From a bacterium (GTDB lineage: Bacteria > Patescibacteriota > Minisyncoccia > Phycocordibacterales > UBA9973): DNA of 64,000 bases. This document shows, piece by piece, positions 12,581 to 63,287 of the stretch. The DNA lies in contig JAKAKW010000012.1 in assembly GCA_021824345.1 (NCBI GenBank), positions 1,491 to 65,490 of the forward strand, in the 5' to 3' direction. The notes beneath the pieces are model-generated. The model saw only the letters and a list, made by a program, of their open reading frames with translations. It searched no databases and had not been told where the DNA came from. The position numbers were made by a program, and so were the translations under genes. Position 1 is the first letter of the stretch, and each line of letters begins with the position of its first letter.

Positions 12581-12600
12581 CGGTTTTGCCTGCAAAAAAG

Positions 12601-14025: not shown

Positions 14026-14081
14026 AAATATTTTTCGGGCGCGAGGCTGGATTTTCCGCCTGAAGCGTCCGCTCTATTATT

Positions 14082-15497: not shown

Positions 15498-15559
15498 TTT
15501 TATATTTTCTTTATCCAGTCTTTATAAAAATTTTATGTCGGAAGAATATAGTAGCCGGC

Positions 15560-15730: not shown

Positions 15731-15778
15731 CCGTACGCAACCCTTCGCGCTTTCTAAGACGCATTTATGCCTGCGCGG

Positions 15779-39590: not shown

Positions 39591-39700
39591 GCTTCTATTA
39601 TACTCTCCCTGTCAAGCGGGGGAGTAAGATTATTTGGCTATTGATGAACATATTTTCCGGTCAGATATTTTTTATGTATTTATAACCGATTTACCTAAGT

Positions 39701-40252: not shown

Positions 40253-40253
40253 A

Positions 40254-40871
40254 CTATAGATTTTTTATCATCCTGATGATTTCTGGAAATCTTGAGATTA
40301 AGAAATGCCCGTTCTTGCTCTTGTAAATTACGATCTTTGCGTTTTTTAGTTTCTTGCGATATTTTTCCGCATGAGATATGGGAACCACAGGGTCATCAGC
40401 GGAAAACATGAGAATTAATTTCTTTGCATTCTTTTCTAAAAGAGAAAGATTTGGTTTTAACTTGAAACGGGCGGTAGCCAGGCTTTCCCCGGGTTCGCCG
40501 GTTACCGTGTCATCAAACGGGGGACAGACCAGAAAAACAGCTGAAATTTTTTTAGGGAATTTTTTTTCCGATAAATACTTTGCCAAAAACATCCCGCCAA
40601 GAGAACTGCCGATTAAAATTATGTTATTTCGCAAGTACGGGAAAAATCTTTCAAAATGGATTTTCCATTCCTCATATTTAGCATTGTCTGACAAGGGCAT
40701 GCGAGGGCGGATTATTTCAAATTTTCTGCCCAGTTTCTTGTCTAAATACGCATCCTGCCACCTATCTTTATGCAGAGATACTGTTCTCGTCTTCAAATAA
40801 CGGAGGTAGTCTTTATAGGTTTTAAACGTATCTCCTCCGTGCACCAGAAATATTTGTGGTTTGGATTTCAT
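40254..40871 (-). CDS. Alpha/beta hydrolase (YdeN/RBBP9-like serine hydrolase)
   Basis: Nucleophile elbow GSSLGG. 205 aa. Confidence 0.6.
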   Translation of the reverse strand: MKSKPQIFLVHGGDTFKTYKDYLRYLKTRTVSLHKDRWQDAYLDKKLGRKFEIIRPRMPLSDNAKYEEWKIHFERFFPYLRNNIILIGSSLGGMFLAKYLSEKKFPKKISAVFLVCPPFDDTVTGEPGESLATARFKLKPNLSLLEKNAKKLILMFSADDPVVPISHAEKYRKKLKNAKIVIYKSKNGHFLISRFPEIIRMIKNL

Positions 40872-40907
40872 AGCTTGTGATAATTATATATTGTAGGCCA
40901 GGAAAGT

Positions 40908-41531
40908 CTATACTTTCTTTCTTGCCCAGATTTCTATCCAGGAAATATTACGGCGCTTATGCATGTCCGGTAATATCTCGGAAGAAAAAACTTTAAATCC
41001 TTGTTTTTTAAGCATGAACTTTATCTCTTTTTGCGAAAAATATGTATAGAATCGTTCGTACTCGCCTGTAAGCTTTTCTTTTTCATACATTTCTCCTCTT
41101 CCTTTCCTTACTCCGATGTGTAATATCCCGCTAGGTTTCAGGACTTCGTAAAATTCCTTTATCGCCCTTGGGACATCTTTTCTCTTTAAATGAAGCAATA
41201 CGGCCTCTGCCCATATTCCGTCAAAAGTTTCTTTCGGGAAATTCATTTTTAGCAGATCCACGCATTTAAAGCTTGCCTTTTTTGCTTCTTTTTTTGCAAG
41301 ATTTATCAATACCGGTGATACGTCAATGCCGGTTGCTTTCAAACCATGTTGAGTAAAAAATTTTGCGTCTCTGCCTCCTCCGCATCCAACGTCCAGAATG
41401 TGATCATTGGCGGAAAATAATTTTACAAAAGGGAGCCGTTTAATCGGAATGGCTGTCTTACTTTTTTCCAGGTATTTTTTGCCCATTTTGTTGTATGTCT
41501 CTAGAGTTTTTCCGTACGCGGATTTTCTCAT
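40908..41531 (-). CDS. Class I SAM-dependent methyltransferase
   Basis: SAM motif I ILDVGCGGGRD. Confidence 0.7.
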   Translation of the reverse strand: MRKSAYGKTLETYNKMGKKYLEKSKTAIPIKRLPFVKLFSANDHILDVGCGGGRDAKFFTQHGLKATGIDVSPVLINLAKKEAKKASFKCVDLLKMNFPKETFDGIWAEAVLLHLKRKDVPRAIKEFYEVLKPSGILHIGVRKGRGEMYEKEKLTGEYERFYTYFSQKEIKFMLKKQGFKVFSSEILPDMHKRRNISWIEIWARKKV

Positions 41532-41539
41532 AATGAAAT

Positions 41540-41941
41540 TTATTTTCCCAAATATTCCAATACCCTCGGCAAAAAGATAATCAGTCCGACGGCGAATGCG
41601 GCGATGGCAGAAAGAAGCACCGCGCCGGCTGCCACGTCCTTGGTGTCTTTGGCGTAAGGATGATATTCAGGCGAAGTAAGGTCCATGTCTATTTCAATGG
41701 CGGTGTTGAATGCTTCGGCGGAAAGGACCAGTCCGAAGGTAAGCACAAGCGCGATCCACTCAAGAGGGGAGATGCCGAAGGCAAAGCCCAAAGCGATGGC
41801 ACAGGCCATGAGGAAGAAGTGTATCCAGGCGTTGTGGGTGCCTTTCAAGAAAATCCAAATCCCCCGGCCGGCATGAGTGAAGCTTTCGGCGCGCTTTACC
41901 AGGGAGAATTCCTTTTTTTCGGATAGTTTTGCTTCGGGCAT
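41540..41941 (-). CDS. dgkA: Diacylglycerol/undecaprenol kinase (DgkA family)
   Basis: 133 aa, three TM. Motifs HAGRG, NTAIE. Confidence 0.7.
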   Translation of the reverse strand: MPEAKLSEKKEFSLVKRAESFTHAGRGIWIFLKGTHNAWIHFFLMACAIALGFAFGISPLEWIALVLTFGLVLSAEAFNTAIEIDMDLTSPEYHPYAKDTKDVAAGAVLLSAIAAFAVGLIIFLPRVLEYLGK

Positions 41942-41942
41942 A

Positions 41943-42053
41943 TTGTTTAGCTGAATAGGGCTGACGCCCCGCGAGCATGACCAAAGTACAGAGTGCTTTT
42001 GTCATGCTTGCCTTCGGCTTGTTTAGCTGAATAGGGCTGACGCCCCACAAGCA
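41943..42053. repeat. Two 35-bp direct repeats (TTGTTTAGCTGAATAGGGCTGACGCCCC[G/A]C[G/A]AGCA) at 41943-41977 and 42019-42053, flanking a hairpin
   Basis: Seen directly: 33/35 identity, 76-bp period. Intervening AGCATGAC-n17-GTCATGCT inverted repeat. Confidence 0.6.
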
Positions 42054-42165
42054 CTCGTAGAGTATAGCAAGCTTAATGGAAAAATCAATATTGCGTGAAG
42101 AATAGTCTATTGATGGGTCGTCAGCTCGGAGATGGTCACGAATGAGAGTTTTTTGACGTCTTTTG

Positions 42166-42345
42166 CTATCCTTTTGCATATGTCCACACAGGAGGTTCAA
42201 AATCAAAACTTAAGCCGGAGGAACTATCATGGAGCCACATACTATTGTCGTATTTTTCTAACTCAACGAAAGCACAATCTCCAATTTCTTTAAGTTCTCC
42301 CCATTTCAATATATCCCTAAATAAAACCCTCATCGGTCCTGGCAC
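42166..42345 (-). pseudogene. Remnant of a histidine-phosphatase gene (C-terminal ~57 codons), paralogous to the intact gene at 52901-53506
   Basis: Minus-strand translation GPMRVLFRDILKWGELKEIGDCAFVELEKYDNSMW aligns with GGPMRVLFRDILKWGELVEIGDCSYVELEKKDN of the full-length protein. No N-terminal part is present. Confidence 0.5.
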
Positions 42346-42349
42346 AATT

Positions 42350-42889
42350 TTAGACAGTAATTTCTAAAGCAGCTTTTGCAAGGACCTCTTTAATAAAATC
42401 GTTCTTTCCGGCCCCGTATGCTCGCCGATCATTCGGGTATTGGCGGGCCAGCCTCTCTTTCAGTTGCGCATATTCTTGTGCAACTTTAGGATGTTTTAGA
42501 TAGTAATTCTTTATTAGGAGGTGGTTTTTCCATTCCGTACTATTTTTTTCTACAAGATGCAGGTTAACTGTTCTATTTTCTGCAGGACCTTTAGCATACA
42601 AGATTCTCTCCTGTATGCCTTCCTCTCCTCTATAATAATAATTAAAAGATGCGAGCCGATCTTTCAATCCTCGAGCAATATCAAGAGAGGGGACAACGGC
42701 AAAGATGTCGAGTATGGGTTTTGCGGGGATGTTCGGTATGGAAGTACTGCCTCCATGAGACACTTCTAAAATCTCACCCGGGAAATTATCCAACAAGAAT
42801 TTTTTCTCTTCCTCAAAGAGTTTACCCCATTTATTATTATGCGGTTTCAATATAACTTTTGTTCTGTCTAGGCCTAAATCTTGAGGCAT
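42350..42889 (-). CDS. GrpB family protein (UPF0157, nucleotidyltransferase-like)
   Basis: GrpB signature (HGGSTSIP...KPILDI; NLHL motif). 179 aa. Confidence 0.7.
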   Translation of the reverse strand: MPQDLGLDRTKVILKPHNNKWGKLFEEEKKFLLDNFPGEILEVSHGGSTSIPNIPAKPILDIFAVVPSLDIARGLKDRLASFNYYYRGEEGIQERILYAKGPAENRTVNLHLVEKNSTEWKNHLLIKNYYLKHPKVAQEYAQLKERLARQYPNDRRAYGAGKNDFIKEVLAKAALEITV

Positions 42890-42950
42890 ACTTTGATTGT
42901 ATCAAAAAAATGGGTCGCGCGAACAGCGGCCCTATCTGCCTTGTTTAATA

Positions 42951-44258
42951 TTAATCAGTGAGAACTTTTCGTTCTATTTCATCAAAACTGTAACCTGTCG
43001 TGAAATGATCTTCAAAATTCTGCATTGCCGGTTCGCCGACATATTCTTTTCGGCGGGACGCATAATGCATGGCTAATGCCATTTCTTCAGGAACGCCTAC
43101 GCAGTCAAGCGGTTTGAATCCTTCAATGCCGAGAATCCGCCGAAAAAGCGGCAAGAGTTTCGTATGGGTGTATAGATCAGCGCCGAATATATCTACCACT
43201 TCCTCTCTTGGAAGAAAGGCCGAAAAACAGGCAAAGAGGAACACGCATTTCGGGCACCGCTTGCACCAATATCCTTTCTTTAAAAGAAGTTGCGTGGGAC
43301 GCGGAAGCCAGAAATATGTATTACAGCTTGTAACATAGCGCAGATATTTTGGATACTTCACAAAACGTCGCACTATTTCCAGCTCGCTGTACTTTCGCAA
43401 GGGCGATATCGTCTTGATGTCGGGCGTTATAAAAGTTTGAATGTAATCGTTCGTCATCTGTTCTGCCTCGGATGATTTACACCACTGATGGTTCACCGGA
43501 AGTCCCAGGTAGGTAAGATTTCCGAAATCGGCGCTGCGCTCATTGGAAAATACGATTGAATCATATCCCAAGAGTTCTGCGAGCAACACCGCGATAAAAG
43601 TAAAAGTGGAGACCGATGGGTATGCGCTGGATATTCCAAAAAGAGACATGGCCATCTCAAGATACGGATCGCGGCGGCGGCTGACCCGGATATTTTTTGC
43701 TCCCACCAATTTGGCGATGCGCTTGTGGGCCGGCGTCGGAGCGAAGGCAAAGTAATCAAATGGCGTGCTTGATGCCTTTAATATTTCGGCGGACAGAATG
43801 GAATCTTTGCCTGCGCCGTTTAAAAGAAGCGATCGCGCGGGTAACTTTAATCGTGCCGGCTCGGGGATCGTAGCAGAGGCATTATACGGAAACTCAATAA
43901 GGTTATGGAAATCCATCTTCATGTCGTAGAAGAACTCTCCAAGCCCGTTCAGGTAGAGCGAATTCCAGAATTGCGCCTGTTCGCGCGAAAGGGTAAATCC
44001 TTCAATGTGAATGTTCTTAGTCGGGAAGACGCACCAATAGTTGATGCCAAGCATTAGTAGAAGCGCTTGAAGTGTTGGTTTTAGCGCTTCTTCCGGCACA
44101 TTTTTCCAGGACTCGCGCGGCACGTCTTCCAGAAATATGCGGTCGGTGAAAGTTTTAGTTATTCCAATCTTAAATTTCACGCGATAGGTAAAAGCGATGC
44201 TTGAATGAGCAGTGTCTATTTTATATGAGCCGAAAGTAAAAGATGAAACGCGCGGCAT
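42951..44258 (-). CDS. QueC-like PP-loop ATPase with ~150-aa N-terminal extension
   Basis: PP-loop-like LLLNGAGKDS. C-terminal zinc cluster TSCNTY...WCKRCPKC resembles the QueC motif T.TCYNG...GCGHCAAC. 435 aa. Confidence 0.5.
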   Translation of the reverse strand: MPRVSSFTFGSYKIDTAHSSIAFTYRVKFKIGITKTFTDRIFLEDVPRESWKNVPEEALKPTLQALLLMLGINYWCVFPTKNIHIEGFTLSREQAQFWNSLYLNGLGEFFYDMKMDFHNLIEFPYNASATIPEPARLKLPARSLLLNGAGKDSILSAEILKASSTPFDYFAFAPTPAHKRIAKLVGAKNIRVSRRRDPYLEMAMSLFGISSAYPSVSTFTFIAVLLAELLGYDSIVFSNERSADFGNLTYLGLPVNHQWCKSSEAEQMTNDYIQTFITPDIKTISPLRKYSELEIVRRFVKYPKYLRYVTSCNTYFWLPRPTQLLLKKGYWCKRCPKCVFLFACFSAFLPREEVVDIFGADLYTHTKLLPLFRRILGIEGFKPLDCVGVPEEMALAMHYASRRKEYVGEPAMQNFEDHFTTGYSFDEIERKVLTD

Positions 44259-44314
44259 TTCTATATGGTATCACAATTACGAACCTTAACGTTCTTCTGA
44301 GTGGCGTTATAAAT

Positions 44315-44902
44315 TTATTGGTTGTTAATACGGCTATGATAACCAAGTTCTAAATCTTTTAGTAGTCGAGAAAAAGATGCTTCATTATCTCCCTCCCATG
44401 CATACCAAGTTATAAAGTTACCTCCATGTGATTTACTTATTATATTTAACACTTTTTGAACAACCGAGAAAATTTTTTCTATTTCTAAAGTATATATTTT
44501 CTCTTGTTGTGGGTTTTTGGGTTCATGCGCTGTAATGTTGTGTCGAAGAGTTTTAATTCTTTTTATCTCTTCTTGGATAGTGCTCAAGTGATAATTTGCC
44601 TCTCTTATATCATTAGAAGGTAGATTTTGTATTAAGGTTTGCAATTTGAGACTATCTTTTGGTTTATCGAAGAATTTATAAAGATCAGTAATGAAAGCAT
44701 TTTCAGTTGCATATAAAACACCACTAAAAATTCCACCATACCGGTTAAGGATACTGGCACGTCTATTTACTTCCTCTTTACCAACTTCCGGTATTGAAAG
44801 TGATTTACGGATATACTTCCAGATTTGAAAGCAACCATATGCACGATTCATTCTATGTACCAGCTTCCCAAAATCAGTTGTGGTGTCTATGTTAATCTCC
44901 AT
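44315..44902 (-). CDS. Hypothetical protein with HEPN-like R-x5-H motif (possible abortive-infection/RNase)
   Basis: LRHNITAHEP. AT-rich gene. 195 aa. Confidence 0.4.
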   Translation of the reverse strand: MEINIDTTTDFGKLVHRMNRAYGCFQIWKYIRKSLSIPEVGKEEVNRRASILNRYGGIFSGVLYATENAFITDLYKFFDKPKDSLKLQTLIQNLPSNDIREANYHLSTIQEEIKRIKTLRHNITAHEPKNPQQEKIYTLEIEKIFSVVQKVLNIISKSHGGNFITWYAWEGDNEASFSRLLKDLELGYHSRINNQ

Positions 44903-44928
44903 GTTTTAATTAATGAGCCCTTGGATAC

Positions 44929-45396
44929 CTACATTTTAAGATGAGCCCATCTAATCCAGTTACCCAGGAACCTACCTGATAAGTCGACAAGAGTTAAATC
45001 TTTTCCATTTACGGGACTCTTTTGTCCATGAAAAAGATTACATCTTATTTGGTATATAAAATCAACTACCTGACTAAAATCGGAAGTATCTTTTAGTTCT
45101 TTATATTCTCCGCGGTGATTAGGGCGCATGTCCTCAATGCGCGGATACTGCATCAGTCCTTGTAAGTCTGATGTGTCGAATTCTTTATCTATAAATAATT
45201 GTTTAAGTGAATTATCTGAATTTTTCAGCCAATCAATTTTTTGAGTATCACTATCTGCTTCAGATTCTGAAACCATATACGCATCTAGGCACATGTAATA
45301 GATGAAAAATCGAACGAACGGATCCAAATTATCTTTGGAAAGTTTCTTTTCTCTTAGAATCCACCAGTCGACTATATTTTTGAGGTTTTCATTCAT
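44929..45396 (-). CDS. HEPN-domain protein (R-x4-HG motif)
   Basis: IRCNLFHGQKS near the C-terminus of a 155-aa, helix-rich protein. Confidence 0.5.
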   Translation of the reverse strand: MNENLKNIVDWWILREKKLSKDNLDPFVRFFIYYMCLDAYMVSESEADSDTQKIDWLKNSDNSLKQLFIDKEFDTSDLQGLMQYPRIEDMRPNHRGEYKELKDTSDFSQVVDFIYQIRCNLFHGQKSPVNGKDLTLVDLSGRFLGNWIRWAHLKM

Positions 45397-45410
45397 AGCT
45401 GATATTGACG

Positions 45411-45478
45411 CTCCTCGGACTCCGAAAGCGTCTCAAACTGGCTGGCATTATGGCACGAAGTTAGAACTCGGAAGCCTT
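45411..45478. repeat. ~70-nt island repeat element, full copy 1
   Basis: TTGACGCTCCTCGGACTCCGAAAGCGTCTCAAACTGGCTGGCATTATGGCACGAAGTTAGAACTCGG. About 82% identical to the copy at 50917-50983. Confidence 0.6.
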
Positions 45479-45480
45479 AA

Positions 45481-46062
45481 TTAATCAAAAGAATTAACCA
45501 CATCGGGCAGTTCAAGACAAGCATCTTCACTATCAAAAGCCCCTGAAAAATGTTTAGCATTATGTTTTATTATTAATTCCGCGCTTAACTTTTCTTTCAG
45601 TATATTCCCATGTTCTAACGGAACGTAAGGGTCGTTATCGGAATGGATTAAAACGAATTTATTTGCCTTATTTCTTATCTTTTCAAATTCAAAGTCTTTG
45701 ACAAAGAAATTTTTCAATTCATCAAAGCCTAAATTATTCACAAACCCGGCGACAAGAACGACGGTTCCCACCTTTTCATTTTCATCAAGAGACTCCAGAT
45801 ACCTAAGTATCGTCACACTGCCGGCGCTGTGTCCAATGAGGTTGATGTCCTCGTTTGGTTCGCCGACCGCTTCTTTTAAAACCGGCAACCACTTTTCTAA
45901 ATTAGGATTTTCTGTATCGGGAAAGCTAAGAACATCTACTTCATATCCCTTTTTCTCCAATTCTCTTTTCGCATAAGGGTACCAGCAATATTCCGGATAA
46001 CCTCCCCAGCAGTGAGCGATGATAGCCTTTTTCATATTTTTATTATACAAAACATGGGTCAA
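45481..46062 (-). CDS. Alpha/beta hydrolase, YdeN/RBBP9-like serine hydrolase
   Basis: Nucleophile elbow IGHSAGS. 193 aa. Confidence 0.6.
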   Translation of the reverse strand: MTHVLYNKNMKKAIIAHCWGGYPEYCWYPYAKRELEKKGYEVDVLSFPDTENPNLEKWLPVLKEAVGEPNEDINLIGHSAGSVTILRYLESLDENEKVGTVVLVAGFVNNLGFDELKNFFVKDFEFEKIRNKANKFVLIHSDNDPYVPLEHGNILKEKLSAELIIKHNAKHFSGAFDSEDACLELPDVVNSFD

Positions 46063-46083
46063 AATTACGAGATGATCTTATGG

Positions 46084-46103
46084 CGCGAAGTTGGAACTTT
46101 TTT
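46084..46103. repeat. Island repeat element, 3'-portion copy (TATGGCGCGAAGTTGGAACT)
   Basis: Matches the 3' third of the full copies. Confidence 0.45.
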
Positions 46104-46357
46104 AGCTAATAATTCTTTAAGTTTTTTTAAATCCATCTCTGTTCGGAAATGAAGAATATTCCCTGAAAATGAGATATATCAGCGATCCATCGTTACAATC
46201 ACAAGTGAATTCATTCCGTCCTCAAAATGTCCGCCCAATTTGCTCTTTTGGTGATGTAGGAATACAATTCAGTTAACAATGATCGCATGTAATGAAAGAA
46301 ACCCTGTATAAGATGGAAAATATAGTCGAGAAAGGAATGCCAACTTAGGTCGAAACT

Positions 46358-49300
46358 ATGCACGAGACATCCGACAGGAAAATAATTCTGGCGACCGAGA
46401 GAAATGACACGTCTCATGAACTGAGAGGACACTTCAATCGGGACACATATCTAAAAACCGTAGAGCGCGCACTTGAGCGTGCCGAGACAAAAGAGAAAAT
46501 CATTGCGGTCATACGCGACGCAATCCGCGGACAGGCGGGACGAAAGGATCTTGAGGAACTCTTCGCATCAATCCGGTTCACATCGGATAAGAGCGACGAG
46601 GAGCGCTTTATCACCACCGACCGCTACATCACGATGGAGCTCGACGAGATTGAAGAATCACTTGCCGATCCAGACACGCGCGCCGAGTTCGACCGGATGT
46701 CCTTTGACGAATTCAAGAATGAGACACGGGAAGAGGTTGGCAGTCTTGTCGCACCAGAACTCAAGGACGCAGGCGCACCAGAACTTACACGGGTACTTAA
46801 GTATGTCGGCGAACGGCTGATCGTGCCCGACTACAATGTATCGGAGCTTATTGGGTTCATAAACGACTACTGCACCATCGCGCCGGGAAGAGAAGTGATT
46901 GTAGATCGGTGCGTATTCGGCGCAGATCCGAAAGAAAAGAATAATTTGTTCAGCGCGCGTAGCGATCTTAAGGAAATCCTCGAAGATCCCGAAACGTGCG
47001 AGAAGATAGACATTATCATATCCAGCAATCTCATCGAGCGATTCACATTCTCCGCCGGTCTGTCGCATTCGACGGATAAATCGGATTCAGATATGCGACT
47101 GTTCTTGAATGCGGTGTTGATTGAGAGCCTTAAACTTGCCGCGCACAACGAATATCTGACGATCACGTCCAAAGATCGGATCTACGCGCACGCTGTCAAT
47201 AGGATCACTGAAAAACGGCTCGCGGATATCCATGCGTTTGACTCCACCCTTACCACGATCGACCTGGACAATCTCCGCGATTTCCAAATACTGGAAGGTC
47301 TGCCTGAAGCAGGCCGTGCGTTCTGCAAGAAGATCTATGAAGCAACCGGGCTCGCGGGCACCGGCGCTTTCAACCGGATCGGTATCAGCTATTTCTCCGA
47401 CGCACTTGCCGACCCGGAAAAGTTTCGCAAGCTCGAACTCGCGTATGACCTTGGTGCGATCAGCGGTTTTACCTCTTCCTACGAAGGTGATCTGACGAAA
47501 AGAATTTTCACCTGGAGCGATGAACAGATTAAGAGCGTCGCCATGGGCTTCAAGACCGGCCTCGTGAAGGGGCCTTCGGATGGACGCGCCATCGCGCGGA
47601 TTCTCACCCTAAATACCGATGACCTCCTCTCTCTCAACGAAGCCGGGGAGACACTCTTGGTCGGCAATGAACTGCTCAATGCGCTCCGCGCATCGAGCCC
47701 CGAAGACCGCGCAGAGTATAAAAGCATCCTCGCTTCGATCGAGGGAAACCAATGGGTTAAGGAGGAGAAAAAAATGGAACTCCTACGGTATGCTGAAGAA
47801 CTCCGCACACTCACCCCGGACGCCCGTGCATTCCTCGATGCATGGCACGCGCACCAAGGACAATTCTACAGTAGCCAGGTTGAAGCGTACACCGAACCAC
47901 TCAAGAAAGCGAGCCTCTATCCCGATGTCCTCGCCCGCATGGCCGATCGGTACCGCGACCTGGACAACCAGAAGCTTATGTTCAATCTGCTCTCGGACGG
48001 ATATATGGACCTCATAGACATCGACCGCGAGCTCTCCGCGTTCGCGCGGGATCCCAACGCCTACCTCCTCAAATTTCCTCGCCCGTCCGATGTCTTCGAT
48101 CATTTTCGCGAGTTCGAAGACATTATGAATCGCCGCAATCAACCCATGCGCGACGATGTTCACAAAACAATTTTTTTCAGCACGTTCGTCGCGCAGGCCA
48201 CGACCCGCATATCGAATAATGTGGATTTCCCTTACACTACCGACGAGCGCCACGTTTCAGAACTCGCGGGGCGCCTCGCTTCTTGGTACGCCAGCGCGTA
48301 TGATGCGCAGGAAATTCTTTCCACGATCGTCCACATGCACGACGATCTTGCAGACGTCACGTCGGTGCTCGAGCGCATCACGGATGACCCGGATTCCTTT
48401 TTTAAACAGCGCCCGCAGGACGTGATGAAGAATTACGACGCAATCGCGGCGGAACTTGCGAGCCGCGGCAAACGTCTCCACCAGACTACGCTCGACGTGG
48501 CATTCGAGAACACCTTGCGCATGAACCCCGCTCTCCTCATGCGGGAAACCGAGTTTCCATTCACGTCGGAACAGCAAACGATCGCGGACCTCTTCCAGCG
48601 TATTCACAAGTCCCCGTCCCACGAGATAAAGAACATGGACGTCGAGATCGCTGAACAGATCGCTCGGAACGGCGATCTCTCCACCTATGAGGACCGCTAC
48701 CGCGTGATCGAAGAGATCTTCGTCAAGAATAATCTTCCATTTGTCGGCAAGCAAGAGAAGGTCTGCGAGGTGCTGCACCCTGAGATCGAGACGCGGGAAA
48801 ATTCCAGCCCGGTTCTCCAATCCCTCCACGGCACAAACGCGCGGAGGCTACTCGTCTTCAAGGATCTGATGCGCGCAAGCGTACAGAGCCTCAATATGAA
48901 CCTAGAGCAGTATCTCCTAGTCCTTAAGAATGGCGCTACAGTCCTTGACCGATTCGAATCCGGAGCAACGCTCGACGACGACGAAACAGAACAGTTGAAA
49001 TATTTCTTCCGAAAGATAAACGCTCTTACCGAGAACACGCGATTGAACGCGAATGCCACGACCTTTGATCCCGATCGGACGAGTCTCGCCGAGAACCTCG
49101 CCGCACTTCGAAAGAATTTCGGTGTACGCAAGGGGGAAACGATTACCGACAAGTTCACTCGGACGTTCCTGCGGCGGATCGACATCAACTCCATTGATGA
49201 CGCGCTTAGGCAGTTCATCAATCTGCGGAGCGTCGCAGACACGCGCAACCGTGAATTCGCATCATCCGGAAAAATTATTCTCAGTCCGACGGATCTCGCG

Positions 49301-50725
49301 AAAGGCGTCGACTCCGCCTTCTTCGACACCTTCCTCGACCGCGGCGTCTATTCCCCAGAGTTCATCGGCGCAGAAACGGAAGTCGCGAAAGCAAAGGCGA
49401 AGCGAACCGACATGACCCCATGGGACACCGACGTGATCACTGTCGGAGACCGCGATGCGCGCGTGATCGTAGAAGACTCAACGGCTAGCGCATACGGCGA
49501 CGTTATCATAATCGTCCGCGATCGCGGCCAATTCGACCATACCAAGGTCGGCCAACCGCTCCCTGCCGACTCGGGCAAAATGGAACTCTTCAGAACGGGC
49601 GGGACGAACAGCGACCACTTTGGAATCCGCACAGGGTTCGGCTCCACGGAGATCAGCGCGCTTCTCGTGAAGGATAAGATTGCAACGGATGATCGTGCAC
49701 TCTCCGAAATAAAATTCTCAATCGCGAAGAAGGGTTTCTACATCCCCGTCTGCGATAAATCGGGGCGCGTGCTCTTTTCGAGTAATGAATTTGAAACATA
49801 CCGCGCTATCTTCCGTGGCATCGACCGCTACCACGGGGACCCGATCGCTGTGGATGAAACATGGCGCGAATCCCTCTTCCGTGAGGACATCGAATCCGTC
49901 GCACAGACAGAAGGGAATTTGGAAAAGCTCCAAGTGCTCCGCGCCGGGCTCTACGCCGATCTGGCGCACGACCTTAAGGGCAACGGGATCACTCTGCACC
50001 AGGAACGCTATGACGACAGCGTCGTCGGCGCACGGATCGTTGACACCGGCTCGACGGGCCGCGGTGCCGCGCTTGACGAGGGATACGACTTCGACTTTGT
50101 CGTGAAGCTCGACGACGTCGACTTCAACAAGGTTCCCGCCATTACCAATACACTCGAATCCAAATATCCCCTCAACACGAGTTACGAACGCAACGGCATG
50201 CACACGTTCCGCTTTAAGAATTTCGAGCGCGACGGCGAGACGATCAGCCTCGATATCAGCTTCATAAAGAAATCCGACAGCGAAGAACTAGACGCAAATG
50301 AGGCTGTCACGCAGAAATATAATTCGATCCGAAACAAGAGCGGCGAAAAGGCGTGGCTCGACACGCTGACGAACGTGCGCTTCGCAAAACGCGAACTGAA
50401 ACGCGCGGAATGTTATAAGAAAGGAATGGCGGGAGTAGGAGAACAGCAAGGGGGGCTTGGCGGTATCGGCGTGGAGAACTGGATACTCAAGTACGGTGGC
50501 AATGCGATAAAAGCGTTCCGCGACTTCCACGACCACGCATACCGCGAGGGCACGCTCGTGCCGTTCGCAGAATTCAAACAGACTTATCACGTGTTCAGTG
50601 CGGGAGAGAATGTCCGGGGTGGCGTGCGGGCCGAGGATTTCGTCGCACATATGGACGAAACAGGATACCGCAAAATGGCGGAGCTTTCCCGAAAGTTCGT
50701 TCTATCGGAAGCTGACTTGCTCTGA
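46358..50725 (+). CDS. Giant (1455 aa) protein with C-terminal Pol-beta-superfamily nucleotidyltransferase motif; visibly GC-rich relative to neighbours
   Basis: An uninterrupted 4.37-kb ORF with an in-frame stop 4 codons upstream of the ATG. Near-C-terminal GSTGRGAALDEGYDFDFVV (hG[GS]-x9-13-DhD nucleotidyltransferase signature, as in GlnE/GlnD, cGAS/DncV-like and MNT enzymes) followed by GGLGGIGVENWIL. The remaining ~1150 aa have no motif I recognise. The flanks are AT-rich. Confidence 0.6.
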   Translation: MHETSDRKIILATERNDTSHELRGHFNRDTYLKTVERALERAETKEKIIAVIRDAIRGQAGRKDLEELFASIRFTSDKSDEERFITTDRYITMELDEIEESLADPDTRAEFDRMSFDEFKNETREEVGSLVAPELKDAGAPELTRVLKYVGERLIVPDYNVSELIGFINDYCTIAPGREVIVDRCVFGADPKEKNNLFSARSDLKEILEDPETCEKIDIIISSNLIERFTFSAGLSHSTDKSDSDMRLFLNAVLIESLKLAAHNEYLTITSKDRIYAHAVNRITEKRLADIHAFDSTLTTIDLDNLRDFQILEGLPEAGRAFCKKIYEATGLAGTGAFNRIGISYFSDALADPEKFRKLELAYDLGAISGFTSSYEGDLTKRIFTWSDEQIKSVAMGFKTGLVKGPSDGRAIARILTLNTDDLLSLNEAGETLLVGNELLNALRASSPEDRAEYKSILASIEGNQWVKEEKKMELLRYAEELRTLTPDARAFLDAWHAHQGQFYSSQVEAYTEPLKKASLYPDVLARMADRYRDLDNQKLMFNLLSDGYMDLIDIDRELSAFARDPNAYLLKFPRPSDVFDHFREFEDIMNRRNQPMRDDVHKTIFFSTFVAQATTRISNNVDFPYTTDERHVSELAGRLASWYASAYDAQEILSTIVHMHDDLADVTSVLERITDDPDSFFKQRPQDVMKNYDAIAAELASRGKRLHQTTLDVAFENTLRMNPALLMRETEFPFTSEQQTIADLFQRIHKSPSHEIKNMDVEIAEQIARNGDLSTYEDRYRVIEEIFVKNNLPFVGKQEKVCEVLHPEIETRENSSPVLQSLHGTNARRLLVFKDLMRASVQSLNMNLEQYLLVLKNGATVLDRFESGATLDDDETEQLKYFFRKINALTENTRLNANATTFDPDRTSLAENLAALRKNFGVRKGETITDKFTRTFLRRIDINSIDDALRQFINLRSVADTRNREFASSGKIILSPTDLAKGVDSAFFDTFLDRGVYSPEFIGAETEVAKAKAKRTDMTPWDTDVITVGDRDARVIVEDSTASAYGDVIIIVRDRGQFDHTKVGQPLPADSGKMELFRTGGTNSDHFGIRTGFGSTEISALLVKDKIATDDRALSEIKFSIAKKGFYIPVCDKSGRVLFSSNEFETYRAIFRGIDRYHGDPIAVDETWRESLFREDIESVAQTEGNLEKLQVLRAGLYADLAHDLKGNGITLHQERYDDSVVGARIVDTGSTGRGAALDEGYDFDFVVKLDDVDFNKVPAITNTLESKYPLNTSYERNGMHTFRFKNFERDGETISLDISFIKKSDSEELDANEAVTQKYNSIRNKSGEKAWLDTLTNVRFAKRELKRAECYKKGMAGVGEQQGGLGGIGVENWILKYGGNAIKAFRDFHDHAYREGTLVPFAEFKQTYHVFSAGENVRGGVRAEDFVAHMDETGYRKMAELSRKFVLSEADLL

Positions 50726-50854
50726 CCCACATCGGCATATGCTAACACTGTATAAGAAGTGATCGTAGGAAGATCCGACAGGCAAACTATGCCAATCATC
50801 AAATTCGAACCAATTTTGCGTTGAAAATTATACTCGTTTTTCTTCCGTCATTTT

Positions 50855-50872
50855 GACGCTCCTCGGAACGAT
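50855..50872. repeat. Island repeat element, internally deleted mini-copy (TTGACGCTCCTCGGAACG...)
   Basis: 5' 15 nt of the element joined to a tail (GGAACGATTTTAGCT) resembling the 46084 copy's tail (GGAACTTTTTTAGCT). Confidence 0.4.
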
Positions 50873-50916
50873 TTTAGCTGTTTCAAATATCCTTGCAGGG
50901 CTTGATGCTCCTCGGA

Positions 50917-50983
50917 GTCCGAACGCGCCTCAAGCTGGCTGGCCGTATGGTATGAAGTTGGAACTGTGGTTGCTTAAAATCTT
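50917..50983. repeat. ~70-nt island repeat element, full copy 2
   Basis: TTGATGCTCCTCGGAGTCCGAACGCGCCTCAAGCTGGCTGGCCGTATGGTATGAAGTTGGAACTGTGG. Confidence 0.6.
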
Positions 50984-50989
50984 AAACGA

Positions 50990-52141
50990 TCAACTGTTTG
51001 TAGAAATTTTATTGATAAACCTCCTTGCTCTTTCATCAGGAGACGTTTTATCTACTTTCGGTTCCCAAGCTTTATATACTTCCAAAATTCCTGTATAAAT
51101 AGCATTGCCTGTTGTTATAAAGCGGTGTTGAAGTAACAACACTGCATTGCTTTCAACTAAAAAAATAAAACCAGGTTTTACACAATTTAACGATAAATGG
51201 TCAATAGTTCCTGAGTTTATAATTCTACGAGAGAATTCTTCAAGAGTGTCCAATAAGGGAATGAGGTTTTCTGAATGTGCTCTAGAAAAAGAATAAAGTC
51301 TGTGTTGTCCGTCAATGATCCAACAAGCGCTGTAGCTATTTTTAATAGTCAAAGTGCCGACTTCTGAGTGATTTTTCGACTCTAATCCTGAAATTTTCAC
51401 GAAATTCTTATCTCCTTCCTTTAGCGAAATAATCACATTTGTCGGAAAAATCCCTCCATTATCAAGGAATTGTTGGATTTTTCTTATACGATTTTTATCC
51501 AACATTCTTTGGTAAAAATCTTCTTTTTGTGATCTTCTTCGTGCAACATAAGAAAATTTTAGTAATTCTTTTGGATTTGCGTAAAAACTATATGTTACGT
51601 ATTTTCCTATCTTTGTTTTTAAAGCGGCAACATTTAATTGTTCGTTTTCTGGCGGCCGAATTCCATAATCAGCAAGGAAATTAAAAACTGCGTATTCTCC
51701 TATTTTTTCGTAAAGCTCACTGTAATATTCTAGAAGATTTTCATCAGCATACCAGAAATGAGTTTCTTTGAATAATTCTTTTTCTGATTCAGGAATCTCA
51801 ATTTTTTTTGTTATGAAAATAAATTTGACAAATTTACATTGGGAATATTCTGGAATAGTTTTGTATCCTTCTAGAACCATTCTGGCTCTTTCTTTGGTAG
51901 CTAATATATCTTGGCGAAGATTTTTTTTGACTTTTCTGCCTGCTGCTTTACATTCAAAAACGAATAATATATCCTTGTATCTTCCACAAGCGTCAATCTG
52001 ATTCTTTTCTCCATTAGGCGCTATATGAAAATCTTGTCCCCCTTTTACATCAGAAAACTTTAGTTTTTCTTCTAAAAAAATTTTTACCTCGTTTTCAAAA
52101 TCTTTTCCGTAATCTTTTTTTTCTAATTCAATTTCTTCCAT
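50990..52141 (-). CDS. DGQHR-domain protein (DndB/DpdB-like, ParB/Srx-fold)
   Basis: Exact DGQHR motif in ACWIIDGQHRLYSF. 383 aa, AT-rich. Confidence 0.7.
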   Translation of the reverse strand: MEEIELEKKDYGKDFENEVKIFLEEKLKFSDVKGGQDFHIAPNGEKNQIDACGRYKDILFVFECKAAGRKVKKNLRQDILATKERARMVLEGYKTIPEYSQCKFVKFIFITKKIEIPESEKELFKETHFWYADENLLEYYSELYEKIGEYAVFNFLADYGIRPPENEQLNVAALKTKIGKYVTYSFYANPKELLKFSYVARRRSQKEDFYQRMLDKNRIRKIQQFLDNGGIFPTNVIISLKEGDKNFVKISGLESKNHSEVGTLTIKNSYSACWIIDGQHRLYSFSRAHSENLIPLLDTLEEFSRRIINSGTIDHLSLNCVKPGFIFLVESNAVLLLQHRFITTGNAIYTGILEVYKAWEPKVDKTSPDERARRFINKISTNS

Positions 52142-52425
52142 AAAATAGTTTTTATAAATGATAAAGAATATTTTTCTTTAATCCTTAAGCCTAAATATTC
52201 TACAACATTGTCGTTTTTTATTCAACCTTGATTTTTTTGAAAAAGTGCTATACTTATTCCCTGTATAGGCATGATCTTTGACTGATAAACACTGTATTTC
52301 TACTGTGATCAGTTCGGGATACGTGCCCACTTTGCCTCCTCTAGAAATAAAGAACAAACAAGCCTTTTATTAAATGGCTATTGCTTGTTGTTTATTTCAA
52401 AGTGCATACCTGTACCGAAAGGTAT

Positions 52426-52896
52426 ATGGAGACAAATGGATTCTCACAAAAATTAATAAGGGAAACGATTAAATGCTTCAAAGAAGAAGACGGTATTTCG
52501 CTATCTGAAAATGAAGCAATAGCGATATTGGAATCCTTTGCCGGTTTGTTCCTAGCCTTTGCGGGTCAAAAGCCTCGCGAGCCCATGTTGGGCCGCGAGG
52601 CTTTTCCCTCTGGTCGTAAGGCTCCTGACTTGATATCGGAACTCATTGAACTCTTGGACAAAGTGGACTTGGATGAGCTTGGAATCAAGTCGCGGATTGA
52701 AGACGAGATCAGCAGATTCAATAAATTCAGAACAGGAGTATTGGGTCACAAGCAGGAAAAAGTATCGCTGGATGTGGACGTGCGAAACTACGCAAAATAC
52801 CTTCTCAAAAACGGAACGCTAATGGAGAAAAGAGAACTGCTGTCATGTTTAAAAAGCGAACTAGTTCTCAAAGAAAAAAAGATATTACTGGAATAG
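52426..52896 (+). CDS. Hypothetical protein
   Basis: The track ORF starts at 52381; the internal ATG METNGFSQK at 52426 is more plausible. No motifs. Confidence 0.4.
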   Translation: METNGFSQKLIRETIKCFKEEDGISLSENEAIAILESFAGLFLAFAGQKPREPMLGREAFPSGRKAPDLISELIELLDKVDLDELGIKSRIEDEISRFNKFRTGVLGHKQEKVSLDVDVRNYAKYLLKNGTLMEKRELLSCLKSELVLKEKKILLE

Positions 52897-52900
52897 TGTA

Positions 52901-53506
52901 TTAAGAATCAAAGGGCATTTCAAAGTCCGGTTTTAATCTTTCGTAGTGTATGGGTATAAAGATATTATCTTTTTTCTCCAATTCAACATAAGAGCAATCG
53001 CCGATTTCCACCAGCTCACCCCATTTCAGTATATCTCTGAAAAGAACTCTCATAGGTCCACCGTGGGTTACAATGGCAACAGTTTTATATTCAGGATTGT
53101 TCTTAATTTTCTCAAACGTGCCCGTGATTCTTTTGCTAAAATCCGTATAAGCTTCTGCTCCTTCAACTGTGTTAAATCTATTCTTCAGCAATTCGACTTG
53201 CTCGGGAAATTTATTTTTCGCCTCATCTTTATTTATTCCCGTTAATATTCCGTACTGGTTCCTTTCTCTCAAATCATTCTCAACTATAACCTTACAACCT
53301 GCCATGGAAGCAAGAATTTCCGAGACTTCCTTTGCACGCGATAAGGGGCTGGAGAATATTATTTCAATGTCCTTATCCTTCAGTAATTGAGCAAGATCTC
53401 TTGCTTGTTCTCTGCCTTTTTCTGAAAGATGATCATCATAATCCCCCCCATAAAGGTTTTCTATATCGCCGGTGGACTCACCATGTCTAATGAAGAAAAT
53501 TTTCAT
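52901..53506 (-). CDS. Histidine phosphatase family protein (phosphoglycerate mutase-like)
   Basis: RHGES catalytic motif at the N-terminus. 201 aa. Paralogous fragment at 42166-42345. Confidence 0.7.
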   Translation of the reverse strand: MKIFFIRHGESTGDIENLYGGDYDDHLSEKGREQARDLAQLLKDKDIEIIFSSPLSRAKEVSEILASMAGCKVIVENDLRERNQYGILTGINKDEAKNKFPEQVELLKNRFNTVEGAEAYTDFSKRITGTFEKIKNNPEYKTVAIVTHGGPMRVLFRDILKWGELVEIGDCSYVELEKKDNIFIPIHYERLKPDFEMPFDS

Positions 53507-53524
53507 AGTTCTTTATATGTCATG

Positions 53525-54451
53525 CTACTTTTCTAATTCTTCTTTCAATAAGGGAACTATCTGCTTTCTCATTATCAAATTTTCTCTTTCAGCCGCGGAA
53601 CCATTGAATTTAACACCAAGGACTTTCTCAAGTAGATTTTTGATTTCTTCGTCGTTTGCTACGAAGAAATTTTTGTTTTGCTCAAGATCAATAGTATTTT
53701 GGAATATGAGGTTAAACTTCATTTCTTTTTTTATTTCTTCCAATATATCAATGATTTTCCCCAGCCTTTCTTTTATGAGTTTTTCCGCTCCAATCATTTC
53801 TATTTGGGCAATACCTATTATTTTTCCTCCCATATTAAACCAGGAAAGGTCTCCTTCAATTCTTTCTTTCAACTTGTTTCCGGATAAATCCGACTTTGCT
53901 TCAAAAAGCTCTCTCCAGAAATCAGCAGGGAGTTGGGCAGTTTTATTCAAAAATTGAAAAGCCGACCTGTCTCTTTCGGTTGTGACATTACCCTTAAAAT
54001 TCAGCGTATTAGATATTATTGCTCCACATAATAAGATTGCCGATTTCTTAGATATATCTATCTTGTTTTGAATTAACTTTTCGGCTACCAGAGTGGAAGC
54101 GGAACCGACAAGCTCTATTTGAACTTTTGCATTAGGAAACTTGTCCGCTTCGTGGACTTTCCTGTGGTCAATTATTTCAATGACTTTTTCCGGAGAAATT
54201 TTGCCCTCAATTCCCGTAAGATCGCTAGAATCTACAAGAATTACTTCATTAAAATCATTTGCATTTGGTATTTTTTCCGGATATTCAATTTTGAATCTAT
54301 CCAAGACGTATTTGGCTTCATCATGCAGTTCTCCCAGAATTCCAGGCATAGTTTCCTTACCGCTCTTATTTAAGAATTCAGAATAAGCAATCATGCCAGC
54401 GACCGCATCAAGATCTGGGTTCACATATCCGGTAATCAGTATCTTATTCAT
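53525..54451 (-). CDS. ppaC: DHH/DHHA2 phosphoesterase, probable manganese-dependent inorganic pyrophosphatase (family II)
   Basis: N-terminal NPDLDAV and DHR(K)VH DHH motifs. Length (308 aa) and C-terminal DHHA2-like region fit family II PPase. Confidence 0.6.
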   Translation of the reverse strand: MNKILITGYVNPDLDAVAGMIAYSEFLNKSGKETMPGILGELHDEAKYVLDRFKIEYPEKIPNANDFNEVILVDSSDLTGIEGKISPEKVIEIIDHRKVHEADKFPNAKVQIELVGSASTLVAEKLIQNKIDISKKSAILLCGAIISNTLNFKGNVTTERDRSAFQFLNKTAQLPADFWRELFEAKSDLSGNKLKERIEGDLSWFNMGGKIIGIAQIEMIGAEKLIKERLGKIIDILEEIKKEMKFNLIFQNTIDLEQNKNFFVANDEEIKNLLEKVLGVKFNGSAAERENLIMRKQIVPLLKEELEK

Positions 54452-54498
54452 ATAATAAAATATAAAGCCTCTCGGTCACCTGACTTGTCATAAGACTG

Positions 54499-54569
54499 CT
54501 GCCGGACTTGGATTCGAACCAAGATTGCGTGATTCAGAGTCACGATGCCTACCATTAGCAGATCCGGCA
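54499..54569 (-). tRNA. tRNA-Gln(CUG)
   Basis: Minus-strand cloverleaf: U1-A72 first pair (a Gln hallmark), anticodon arm CGTGA-CTCTGAA-TCACG (anticodon CTG), T-arm CTTGG-TTCGAAT-CCAAG. Confidence 0.7.
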
Positions 54570-54654
54570 ATATAATGCGATACCCTTATGTTGCAAGCAT
54601 ACAATAATACAAAAATGGATTTTTTTCAACGTTTGATTCTGCTACAATACCAGA

Positions 54655-54720
54655 ATGCTTAAAGCTGCAATTTTTGACATGGACGGGACGATGCTTGAGA
54701 CGGAAAATATACTAGAGTAG
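54655..54720 (+). pseudogene. N-terminal remnant of a HAD-superfamily hydrolase (21 codons)
   Basis: MLKAAIFDMDGTMLETENILE* carries HAD motif I (DxDGT) and then stops. Confidence 0.4.
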
Positions 54721-54753
54721 TAAAAAAACTAGTGATATAATTTAAATAATAAA

Positions 54754-55236
54754 ATGTTTGCGCAGGGGAAAACAAACAAAAAGATTTCGCGCGAAGAAGC
54801 GGCAAAAAATCTGCGTGATTTGATTTTTGTTTATTTTCTGGTTTTTGTAAGTATTGTGCCATATGTGGCGGCAAGTTTTTCACTATCCGCTATCAATCCC
54901 AGACTGGGATTTGAGGTTTCGGGGTTTTTAATAAGTTTCCTGGTATTTCCTGTTGGTACGATGTTTTTTTTCTTTTGGCGCAGAAAAATTCAACGGCCTG
55001 ATCCGTTAAAGAAATTCATATCGGAACACGCTCAGAAAATTTTTTTTATCGGAGTGGCCATTTTTATAATCATAGTTGTGGTATCTATAATCTGGAATTC
55101 AAACAATTTATTCTTGAGTGCTTTTTCTGTCGTTCCGTCCATGATCTTCATCTTGTTTGATTTTTTGATTATGCAAGTAGCATTGAAGGCGGTTAGGCGC
55201 ATAAAGCAAGATGAGAAGGCGCTTTCATCCGAATAG
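54754..55236 (+). CDS. Hypothetical membrane protein (4 TM)
   Basis: Hydrophobic helices; no motif. Confidence 0.4.
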   Translation: MFAQGKTNKKISREEAAKNLRDLIFVYFLVFVSIVPYVAASFSLSAINPRLGFEVSGFLISFLVFPVGTMFFFFWRRKIQRPDPLKKFISEHAQKIFFIGVAIFIIIVVVSIIWNSNNLFLSAFSVVPSMIFILFDFLIMQVALKAVRRIKQDEKALSSE

Positions 55237-55431
55237 CCGGAGACAAGATATCCTCGAGAAATCCGGATCAGGAAATTTTCCTTGACACAAGCGTTCGCCA
55301 TTCCGCACCAGCATTCCTCATATCATGATTTTTCCAAAGCGACGGAAGTGTTTTCTTCCATGAAGGATATTAATGAAGATGTGCTGAAGGCCATATAAAA
55401 AAATTAGCGACTCTCGTGGAGTCGCGTAATT

Positions 55432-55671
55432 TCAGAAAACCTTGTATTTCTTAGGAGGGTTTACGTTTAATAAATCCTTCATAAGTTCGCTTATTATTTT
55501 ATCTAAGCTTATTTCCTTGGCAAAAATTATTACTATCGCCAAGAATATACAGTTAACACAAAACAGGGCCGAGGAATTTGTTCTTGGTATTATCCCAAAT
55601 ATATATAATAAAAATGGGAATACCATGATGAATATCACTATTTTGATCCAAGCGGGTATTTTGTCACCCAT
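55432..55671 (-). CDS. Small membrane protein (79 aa)
   Basis: Two hydrophobic helices. Hairpin GCGACTC-tcgtg-GAGTCGC at 55408-55428 downstream. Confidence 0.3.
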   Translation of the reverse strand: MGDKIPAWIKIVIFIMVFPFLLYIFGIIPRTNSSALFCVNCIFLAIVIIFAKEISLDKIISELMKDLLNVNPPKKYKVF

Positions 55672-55742
55672 AAAAGCCTCCCAGAAAATTAATGAACAAA
55701 ATTAGTTAACTTAACTTTATATTTAACACCCTAAAATGGCGT

Positions 55743-58243: not shown

Positions 58244-58297
58244 GAAACCTGTTCTTCTCATTTTCCTCGGTATTTTAAAAGTGATACAATATCCAGC

Positions 58298-62064: not shown

Positions 62065-62130
62065 AATCAGCCGAAGCGCGAATACTGTTTTTCGGCTTTT
62101 CTTTGCGCGATTTAGTGGTAAAATATTGGC

Positions 62131-63252: not shown

Positions 63253-63287
63253 GAAAGGAAAAGCAGTTTTGGTATACTTCTTCCATA

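Follow-up and report, generated by a model that had tools for sequence, protein, structure and literature searches.

A large patescibacterial protein with a predicted C-terminal cassette of helical, ADP-ribosyltransferase-fold and Pol-beta nucleotidyltransferase domains

SidE-family effectors of Legionella carry a mono-ADP-ribosyltransferase and a phosphodiesterase in one polypeptide, and the second domain acts on the ADP-ribosylated product. By analogy only, they are a conceptual precedent for the protein described here, in which an ADP-ribosyltransferase (ART)-fold domain is joined to a nucleotidyltransferase (NTase) domain or, in rare relatives, to an HD-like domain. This protein is encoded in a 64,000-nucleotide stretch of contig JAKAKW010000012.1 (assembly GCA_021824345.1; hereafter the window) from a bacterium of the Patescibacteriota, where a complete open reading frame (ORF) at 46358-50725 of the plus strand specifies 1455 amino acids from an ATG start to a stop codon. 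SidE proteins differ from it in belonging to the R-S-E clade of ARTs, in occurring in other organisms and in their domain order, and no sequence or fold match to them was seen. ART active sites have been grouped by their triads into H-H-h, H-Y-[EDQ] and R-S-E; the H-H-h clade, which includes KptA, is concerned mainly with RNA repair, small molecules and soluble ADP-ribose derivatives (PMC9503650). We found no description in the literature of an ART-NTase fusion of this sort, or of ARTs of this family in Patescibacteria or Saccharibacteria. Both folds are well known, and a Tpt1/DarT-like ART with a CCA-adding enzyme-, poly(A) polymerase- or OAS-like NTase at the end of giant proteins is a pairing for which we found no description. 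The family and its domain arrangement are undescribed; the catalytic folds that compose it are known, and the active site of the ART is atypical.

The ORF had been called from the letters alone in a preliminary description of this DNA, and its coordinates, strand and start are borne out. Independent assemblies (ENA, NCBI and Logan) include 13 contigs for which an identical 1455-aa protein is predicted, and thus the ORF is not an assembly artefact; the NCBI copy lies on contig DAICBP010000001.1 of the metagenome-assembled genome (MAG) GCA_027428375.1. An AlphaFold2 model of residues 721-1455, computed with 17 aligned family members, reached a mean predicted local distance difference test score (pLDDT) of 85.5 and a predicted template modeling score of 0.84, and a second AlphaFold model reached a pLDDT of 84.9. 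The models very probably capture a constant C-terminal cassette of ~710 aa, made up of helical, ART-fold and Pol-beta NTase domains. The parts of the protein are as follows.

46358-48559, plus strand: N-terminal region, residues 1-734, conserved only in the closest subfamily (~10 proteins)
48560-49267, plus strand: conserved all-helical domain, residues ~735-970, pLDDT mostly 77-95, found family-wide
49280-49822, plus strand: ART-fold domain, residues ~975-1155, a split beta-sheet ART fold in a confident model
49910-50722, plus strand: Pol-beta NTase domain with helical second lobe, residues ~1185-1455
50048-50098, plus strand: NTase catalytic motif, G1231-S1232-T-G-R1235 followed by D1244-F-D1246
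50243-50263, plus strand: third catalytic carboxylate, D1299, in the strand ISLDISF (model strand 1294-1304), 97% conserved
50378-50476, plus strand: second-lobe motif RFAKxxLKxxxxYKK...GGLGGIGVE with K1344, Y1353, K1354 and G1365-E1373, found family-wide

The preliminary description had recognized only the NTase motif and had left the preceding ~1150 residues unassigned; the ART-fold domain and the conserved helical domain both fall within that part. The helical domain is marked by the motif NNxPxVGK (791-798) and by D836, L837 and S844. Residues 1-734 gave no profile match, and self-BLAST of the whole protein revealed no internal repeats, only a loose DP[EDN]-type motif occurring six times.

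The NTase assignment is carried by both fold and conservation. The motif noted earlier, GSTGRGAALDEGYDFDFVV...ISLDISF (residues 1231-1249 and 1296-1302), lies in a domain that matches known NTase structures, and the model places G1231-S1232...D1246 between strand 1225-1229, a short helix and strand 1243-1251. The required pattern hG[GS]-x9-13-Dh[DE]h is present here and in 177 of the 182 members, and its residues are 97% conserved in the 183 sequences, extending down to ~25% identity, on which the conservation figures are based. R1235, K1344, Y1353, K1354 and the GGxGGxGxE motif are likewise conserved in the relatives. Fold matches extended over 210-230 residues each, covering the core and the helical second lobe. 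The scores were 15.6 for the class I CCA-adding enzyme of A. fulgidus, 14.5 and 13.8 for poly(A) polymerases, 14.4 for Cid1, 14.1 for TUT7 and 13-14 for GLD-2 and other uridylyltransferases; CdnG (13.8), ClCdnE (13.3), OAS1 (12.7) and cGAS (~10) were also matched.

These matches leave clear differences from each described group. Of the class I CCA-adding enzyme, 215 of the 436 residues of structure 4x4n align (head and neck), whereas our protein ends after the second lobe and is devoid of the tRNA-binding body and tail. CCA-adding enzymes, poly(A) polymerases, Cid1, TUT7 and GLD-2 share only 7-16% identity with it and gave no profile match; RRM and zinc-knuckle accessory domains are absent, and the NTase is instead fused to an ART-fold domain. 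Earlier likenesses of the motif to cGAS/DncV-like nucleotidyltransferases (CD-NTases), to GlnE and GlnD and to minimal NTases were upheld in part: CD-NTases, OAS and cGAS are among the fold matches, scoring below the RNA-end polymerases, whereas GlnE, GlnD and minimal NTases are not, and neither profile nor fold places the protein with GlnE or GlnD. The minimal NTases of HEPN-MNT pairs are single-lobed, in contrast to the ~130-aa helical second lobe seen here in a 1455-aa protein, and the HEPN_AbiU2 gene near the ORF lies two genes off and is read from the opposite strand.

The same matches bear on whether the protein could be a fused signaling and NADase module resembling CBASS (cyclic-oligonucleotide-based antiphage signaling system) or Thoeris, in which the NTase would make a second messenger and the ART domain would consume NAD+ or make soluble ADP-ribose derivatives. 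Of the readings considered, this comes nearest to the signaling nucleotidyltransferase suggested in the preliminary description. CD-NTases and OAS are good fold matches, there is a faint profile match at the active-site motif of OAS2 (E = 0.15), ART-fold NADases (RES and SPN) are found among the weaker fold matches and the genomic setting is defense-island-like. However, RNA-end polymerases outscore the CD-NTases, SMODS profiles of PADLOC, Pfam and NCBIfam were unmatched even at E = 1-10, and no nucleotide-sensor domain was recognizable. Unlike a CBASS locus, that of the ORF contains neither a Cap effector gene nor an operon, its neighbors being on the opposite strand, and no neighbor is conserved in 88 loci of the family; the protein is also ~4 times larger than CD-NTases, OAS and cGAS. 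We regard such a module as very unlikely.

Between the helical domain and the NTase, the best fold matches of the ART-fold domain were enzymes that act on nucleic acids. Tpt1/KptA RNA 2'-phosphotransferases scored 9.8, 9.6 and 8.7, CC0527 scored 8.7 and DarT structures scored 8.3, 7.8, 7.5 and 7.1. SopF (7.1), OspC3 (6.9), TreX (6.9), CteC (6.8) and diphtheria toxin (6.7) followed, and PARPs and RES toxins had lower scores. Conservation in this domain reaches 95-99% at D979, K982, G996, E1001, G1004, D1018, T1020, P1021, D1023, D1025, G1047, E1076, H1087, G1089, R1091, T1092, G1093, G1126, Y1128 and P1130. These ~20 residues are as strictly kept as the catalytic residues of the NTase, which, as judged from sequence conservation, argues for a second active site. 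Since conservation of at least 95% is found in residues of both the ART and NTase domains, both may be argued to be active.

The ART-fold domain stands apart from its nearest neighbors as well. Only 78-105 residues of Tpt1/KptA superpose on it, at 11-14% identity; the protein has no PTS_2-RNA profile match in Pfam, NCBIfam or PDB sequences, the N-terminal RNA lobe of Tpt1 with its catalytic Arg/His residues is not present as such, and the domain forms part of a 1455-aa protein in which it is joined to an NTase. DarT, the single-stranded DNA thymidine ART of DarTG, differs in its conserved residues; no DarT profile of Pfam or PADLOC matched, and the antitoxin macrodomain gene of DarTG was not found at the locus. 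A faint PDB sequence match of residues 932-1066 to a phosphoenolpyruvate-synthase-like ATP-grasp domain (E = 1.1) was rejected, as the confident model shows an ART fold.

We next consider the family. When residues 256-1455 were compared by exhaustive phmmer with 1.84 billion representatives, 884 clusters (counted at 50% identity) were retrieved at E <= 1e-3, 575 of them at E <= 1e-30, and these homologs with their strongly conserved residues confirm that the ORF is a real gene, as had been claimed. Nearly all of the 884 clusters align across residues ~735-1448, and the shared module is always C-terminal. Ahead of it, the region equivalent to residues 1-734 is replaced outside the closest subfamily by 0 to ~2300 residues of sequence that is unrelated across the family. 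The proteins are 252-3069 aa long with a median of ~1420 aa; the size of our protein, previously considered unusual, is therefore ordinary for its family. The C-terminal module, used as query by itself, retrieved 23 proteins and later 45, none with a Pfam domain. Profile libraries (Pfam, NCBIfam, PADLOC and PHROGs, searched with the whole protein and with 300-400-aa pieces) gave nothing usable, and profile searches against PDB sequences gave nothing significant.

Named relatives are all annotated as hypothetical proteins and come from Candidatus Uhrbacteria, Moraniibacteriota, the Parcubacteria group and Candidatus Nanoperiomorbus. An alignment-based pattern scan of one genome per GTDB species was positive in 244 of 185,579 species genomes, with titles including Magasanik-, Nomura-, Uhr- and Saccharibacteria and Parcubacteria; a single-sequence scan of the same genomes found nothing. 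Gut MAGs labeled Bacilli, Tenericutes, Erysipelotrichaceae or Clostridia contribute a large set of sequences at 28-31% identity, and a few "Gammaproteobacteria" titles among close relatives are probably automatic mislabels. The family appears limited to the candidate phyla radiation (CPR)/Patescibacteria and reduced-genome gut Bacilli, organisms in which large proteins without annotation remain a major blind spot. Some genomes carry two family copies.

Two other views of the gene were considered and dropped. A word-indexed search with the whole protein against 5.8 billion proteins had matched the query alone, suggesting an orphan gene, even though hundreds of relatives of 30-60% identity exist; the exhaustive phmmer search and the searches with the C-terminal module overturned this. 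Spurious matches to the charged N-terminal region seem to have filled the list of 8000 candidates of the word-indexed search, and the discrepancy is a warning about method. An origin as a phage "polyvalent protein" is unsupported, there being no protein-level relatives in phage, plasmid or viral collections. In E. coli genomes, plasmids and phages, near-identical DNA was not found either.

The last domain of the cassette can be exchanged. In P0015, P0086 and P0136, the helical and ART domains are kept and an HD-like domain, called from an H...HD...D pattern and a sub-threshold Pfam HD match (E = 0.047), stands at the C terminus instead of the NTase; P0015 has the N-terminal region of our protein too. 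A distant relative, P0182, ends in a different unassigned domain of ~240 aa, whose glycine-loop, VxK, DxxxxN and DSG-like motifs are reminiscent of a kinase-like fold. PDB sequence searches with these variant tails gave no match.

The architecture and its distribution raise the question of whether the protein is a host-directed effector of an episymbiont or parasite, after the model of the ART toxins SopF, OspC3 and CteC or of AMPylating effectors, with an N terminus that would deliver or target it and ART and NTase domains that would modify proteins or nucleic acids of the host. The family occurs only in lineages that have reduced genomes and probably depend on hosts, and secreted effectors and Rhs toxins (SopF, OspC3, TreX and CteC) are among its ART-fold matches; a target absent from the producer would also make an immunity gene unnecessary, which fits the lack of a conserved neighbor. 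On the other hand, the protein has no transmembrane segment or signal-peptide-like N terminus, such features occur in merely 2 of the 182 relatives, and four giant relatives contain no credible Pfam domain, with no secretion-system or Rhs/PAAR-type trafficking domain detected. Protein-directed ARTs score below nucleic-acid-directed ones. A conserved C terminus behind a variable N terminus is moreover the reverse of classical polymorphic toxins, and no conserved gene lies downstream, so the family is not a polymorphic toxin system. A host-directed role is accordingly rated as having a small chance of being correct.

Genomic contexts of the homologs were diverse. In one CPR genome (locus L004, contig BUCK21-1 scaffold_1060, 4825-17513), an otherwise canonical purine-biosynthesis operon holds the family gene between purN and purD, tightly spaced and in the same orientation, with a GIY-YIG gene upstream, a serine recombinase downstream and a helix-turn-helix (HTH) gene nearby. 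Another homolog follows an HTH gene and precedes a NUDIX gene, adjoining a recombinase fragment, and another is located between prfA/prmC and rpmE/rpsB/tsf. When the ten nearest genes of the 88 loci were clustered, no conserved partner emerged: no gene family occurred in more than 9 loci, and the commonest was that of generic ABC ATPases.

We tentatively infer from these data that the protein may be a stand-alone conflict protein that modifies nucleic acids with NAD+ and NTPs, a possible rather than a firm assignment, and by analogy most likely one of an autoinhibited sensor-plus-effector kind. Fused sensor-effector defense proteins provide a precedent for autoinhibition, and restraint by the N-terminal region is suggested here because no immunity or antitoxin gene is present. 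The variable N-terminal region would recognize a trigger or target and restrain the cassette. With NAD+ as donor, the ART-fold domain could ADP-ribosylate a nucleic-acid group, either a terminal phosphate or a base. From NTPs, the NTase could attach nucleotides to that RNA or DNA end, or else to the ADP-ribose handle; its position is occupied in rare relatives by an HD-like phosphohydrolase or a different domain. A polynucleotide substrate is the simplest reading, because the structural neighbors of the ART domain act on RNA 2'-phosphates and single-stranded DNA thymines and those of the NTase on RNA 3' ends. A conflict role is favored over a housekeeping one because of the hypervariable N terminus, the swaps of the last domain, the mobility and patchiness of the family and the defense-island-like setting. 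If both domains are active, the family would be a tractable place to look for new nucleic-acid chemistry that depends on NAD+ and NTPs, be it that of a defense effector or of an RNA-end processing enzyme.

Several observations weigh against this assignment. None of the H-H-h, H-Y-[EDQ] and R-S-E triads is recognizable in the sequence of the ART domain. In a non-significant hhalign comparison with E. coli KptA (2.5% probability), which paired DLAKGV...LDRG of our protein with YHGT...KQGL of KptA, K982 took the position of the beta-1 His. Use of NAD+ is thus only putative, as the triads are not evident and a Lys may stand at the first His. No PADLOC defense model matched, no relatives occurred in INPHARED phages, PLSDB plasmids, IMG/VR or BFVD, and the sensor role of the N-terminal region is pure inference. 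Many homologs are also situated amid housekeeping genes (translation factors, ribosomal proteins and pseudouridine synthases), a setting that would fit a cellular RNA-processing role as well.

The missing triads and the possible Lys at the beta-1 His would also suit a pseudo-ART, that is, a non-catalytic binding or scaffolding module within a large NTase. This is hardly probable, considering that many of the ~20 residues conserved at 95-99% are charged (D979, K982, E1001, D1018, D1023, D1025, E1076, H1087 and R1091) and that the ART-fold domain is retained even where the NTase has been replaced.

The housekeeping neighbors bear on the main rival, an enzyme that heals or repairs RNA ends as a cellular counter to ribotoxins. 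Such an enzyme would remove a 2'-phosphate in the manner of Tpt1 or cap a terminal phosphate with NAD+, its NTase would restore damaged 3' ends of tRNAs or other RNAs, and the variants with an HD-like domain would use it to open 2',3'-cyclic phosphates instead. The exchange of NTase for an HD-like domain fits end-processing chemistry, a repair logic of KptA, 2H and RNA ligase has been described (PMC9503650), and several homologs are located beside translation and RNA-modification genes. Nevertheless, Tpt1 profiles do not match and neither the RNA lobe of Tpt1 nor its catalytic residues were seen, the match to the CCA-adding enzyme is confined to head and neck, and neither the window locus nor the 88 loci have RNA ligase, 2H or Pnkp/Hen1 neighbors. 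A hypervariable N terminus of 700-2300 aa, patchy spread and horizontal transfer would be unusual for a repair enzyme, and we consider this role unlikely.

A related scheme, which we hold to be quite unlikely, is an undescribed two-step composite modification: the ART domain would install ADP-ribose on a nucleic-acid end or some other target and the last domain would work on this handle, the poly(A) polymerase/OAS-like NTase extending it, the HD-like variant trimming it and a third variant domain having yet another action, with the hypervariable N terminus picking the target. If true, it would constitute a new macromolecular modification system specific to ultra-small symbiotic bacteria.

Returning to the gene itself, we compared the composition of the ORF with that of its surroundings. 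The preliminary description had seen a GC-rich ORF in AT-rich DNA and had taken it as foreign. The ORF has a GC content of 0.543 (0.66 at third codon positions), compared with 0.409 in the left flank (39001-46357), 0.362 in the right flank (50726-55700) and 0.33-0.38 and 0.32-0.42 in the neighboring genes at 44315-46062 and 50990-54451, respectively. The contrast therefore stands against the flanks; against the window backbone of ~0.50 (0.502 at 1-39000 and 0.495 at 58001-64000), the ORF is only slightly higher. GC content alone overstates the contrast, and the AT-rich flanks are as anomalous as the ORF. The sole other stretch as GC-rich as the ORF is window 1-4000 (0.53-0.60).

Oligonucleotide and codon usage were more telling. 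The tetranucleotide usage of the ORF correlated with that of the backbone at 0.49, compared with 0.73-0.92 for 14 other genes of at least 400 aa and ~0.85 for the AT-rich flanks. TCGA occurs 41 times in the ORF (9.4/kb) and at 0-2.3/kb in every other long gene, GATC at 10.3/kb versus 4.0/kb, and the codon fractions of Leu-CTC (0.51 versus 0.15) and Val-GTC (0.45 versus 0.12) were shifted likewise. In 78 other genomes, the GC content of the homolog was close to that of its surroundings (median difference -0.006, maximum +0.037), and among 89 family genes the window copy has the highest value, no other exceeding 0.516. Together with the direct repeats described below, tetranucleotide and codon usage establish a foreign origin: the gene was acquired horizontally and is probably a recent arrival. 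The earlier claim thus holds, and what decides it is these features and not GC content; neither a GC content equal to the genome average nor a fold other than that of an NTase, the two outcomes named earlier as counting against it, was found. TCGA is strongly avoided in host DNA, at 1.4/kb (observed/expected 0.39), whereas CCGG and AAAA/TTTT are abundant there; TCGA avoidance in this lineage may reflect a TaqI-type restriction-modification system.

Direct repeats were detected on both sides of the gene.

45405-45468, plus strand: direct repeat R1, 64 nt (identity to R3, 84%), ending in the 20-nt core TATGGNNNGAAGTTRGAACT
46079-46098, plus strand: direct repeat R2, consisting of the 20-nt core alone, 260 nt before the start of the ORF
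50902-50965, plus strand: direct repeat R3, 64 nt, 177 nt beyond the stop of the ORF
50853-50867: additional partial repeat copy

Exactly three copies of the core TATGGNNNGAAGTTRGAACT are present in the window (at 45449, 46079 and 50946), with 0.23 expected by chance, and they enclose a Ser_hydrolase gene and the 1455-aa ORF. They resemble cassette boundaries or an insertion scar. Predicted RNA folding of the 64-nt repeat was not exceptional, and a reading of it as a structured RNA was dropped. Every copy sits just 3' of a minus-strand gene, or where one would be. A scan for promoters and terminators gave no signal above chance.

The ORF lies inside an AT-rich mosaic of ~16 kb (~39600-55700, GC 0.32-0.42) surrounded by genome of ~50% GC. 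This region is broken by the backbone-like genes dagK (41540-41941, GC 0.52) and a MurL-like gene (42951-44258, GC 0.47), and it contains GNAT, two Ser_hydrolase, methyltransferase, GrpB, HEPN_AbiU2, DzbB-like, DndB/DpdB-like, His_Phos_1 and DHH/DHHA2 genes. It looks like a variable or defense island. The features nearest to the ORF, and a tRNA gene near the end of the region, are listed here.

44315-44902, minus strand: HEPN_AbiU2 gene (Pfam E = 3e-9), directly downstream of the DzbB-like gene
44929-45396, minus strand: 155-aa DzbB-like gene, partial match to PADLOC DzbB (Dazbog), E = 1e-5
45481-46062, minus strand: Ser_hydrolase gene, divergent from the ORF
50990-52141, minus strand: DndB/DpdB-like gene, 383 aa, convergent with the ORF
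54498-54569, minus strand: tRNA-Gln, near the end of the AT-rich region

The HEPN_AbiU2 and DzbB-like genes may form a two-gene defense pair. The protein encoded at 50990-52141, whose gene has the lowest GC content of the region (0.319), combines a weakly NERD-like N terminus (E = 0.0055) with a DndB/DpdB-type DGQHR domain (E = 3e-14 to PADLOC DpdB); its vicinity has no further dnd or dpd genes.

Finally, a small ORF of 48-60 aa was observed directly upstream of the family gene, on the same strand and at a gap of at most 7 nt, in ~9 distinct CPR loci (L004 7838-7993, L006 7832-7999 and L010 4722-4901; also L016-L020 and L025). Neither the window nor the gut "Bacilli" loci contain it, and no remnants of it or of the longer N terminus of relatives were found upstream of the window gene. 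The encoded peptide is lysine-rich and apparently a single helix, with a conserved C-terminal K/R-rich motif of approximately ...KKI(E/N)(E/Q)IRNKL, and it may be a partner or regulator of the family protein.

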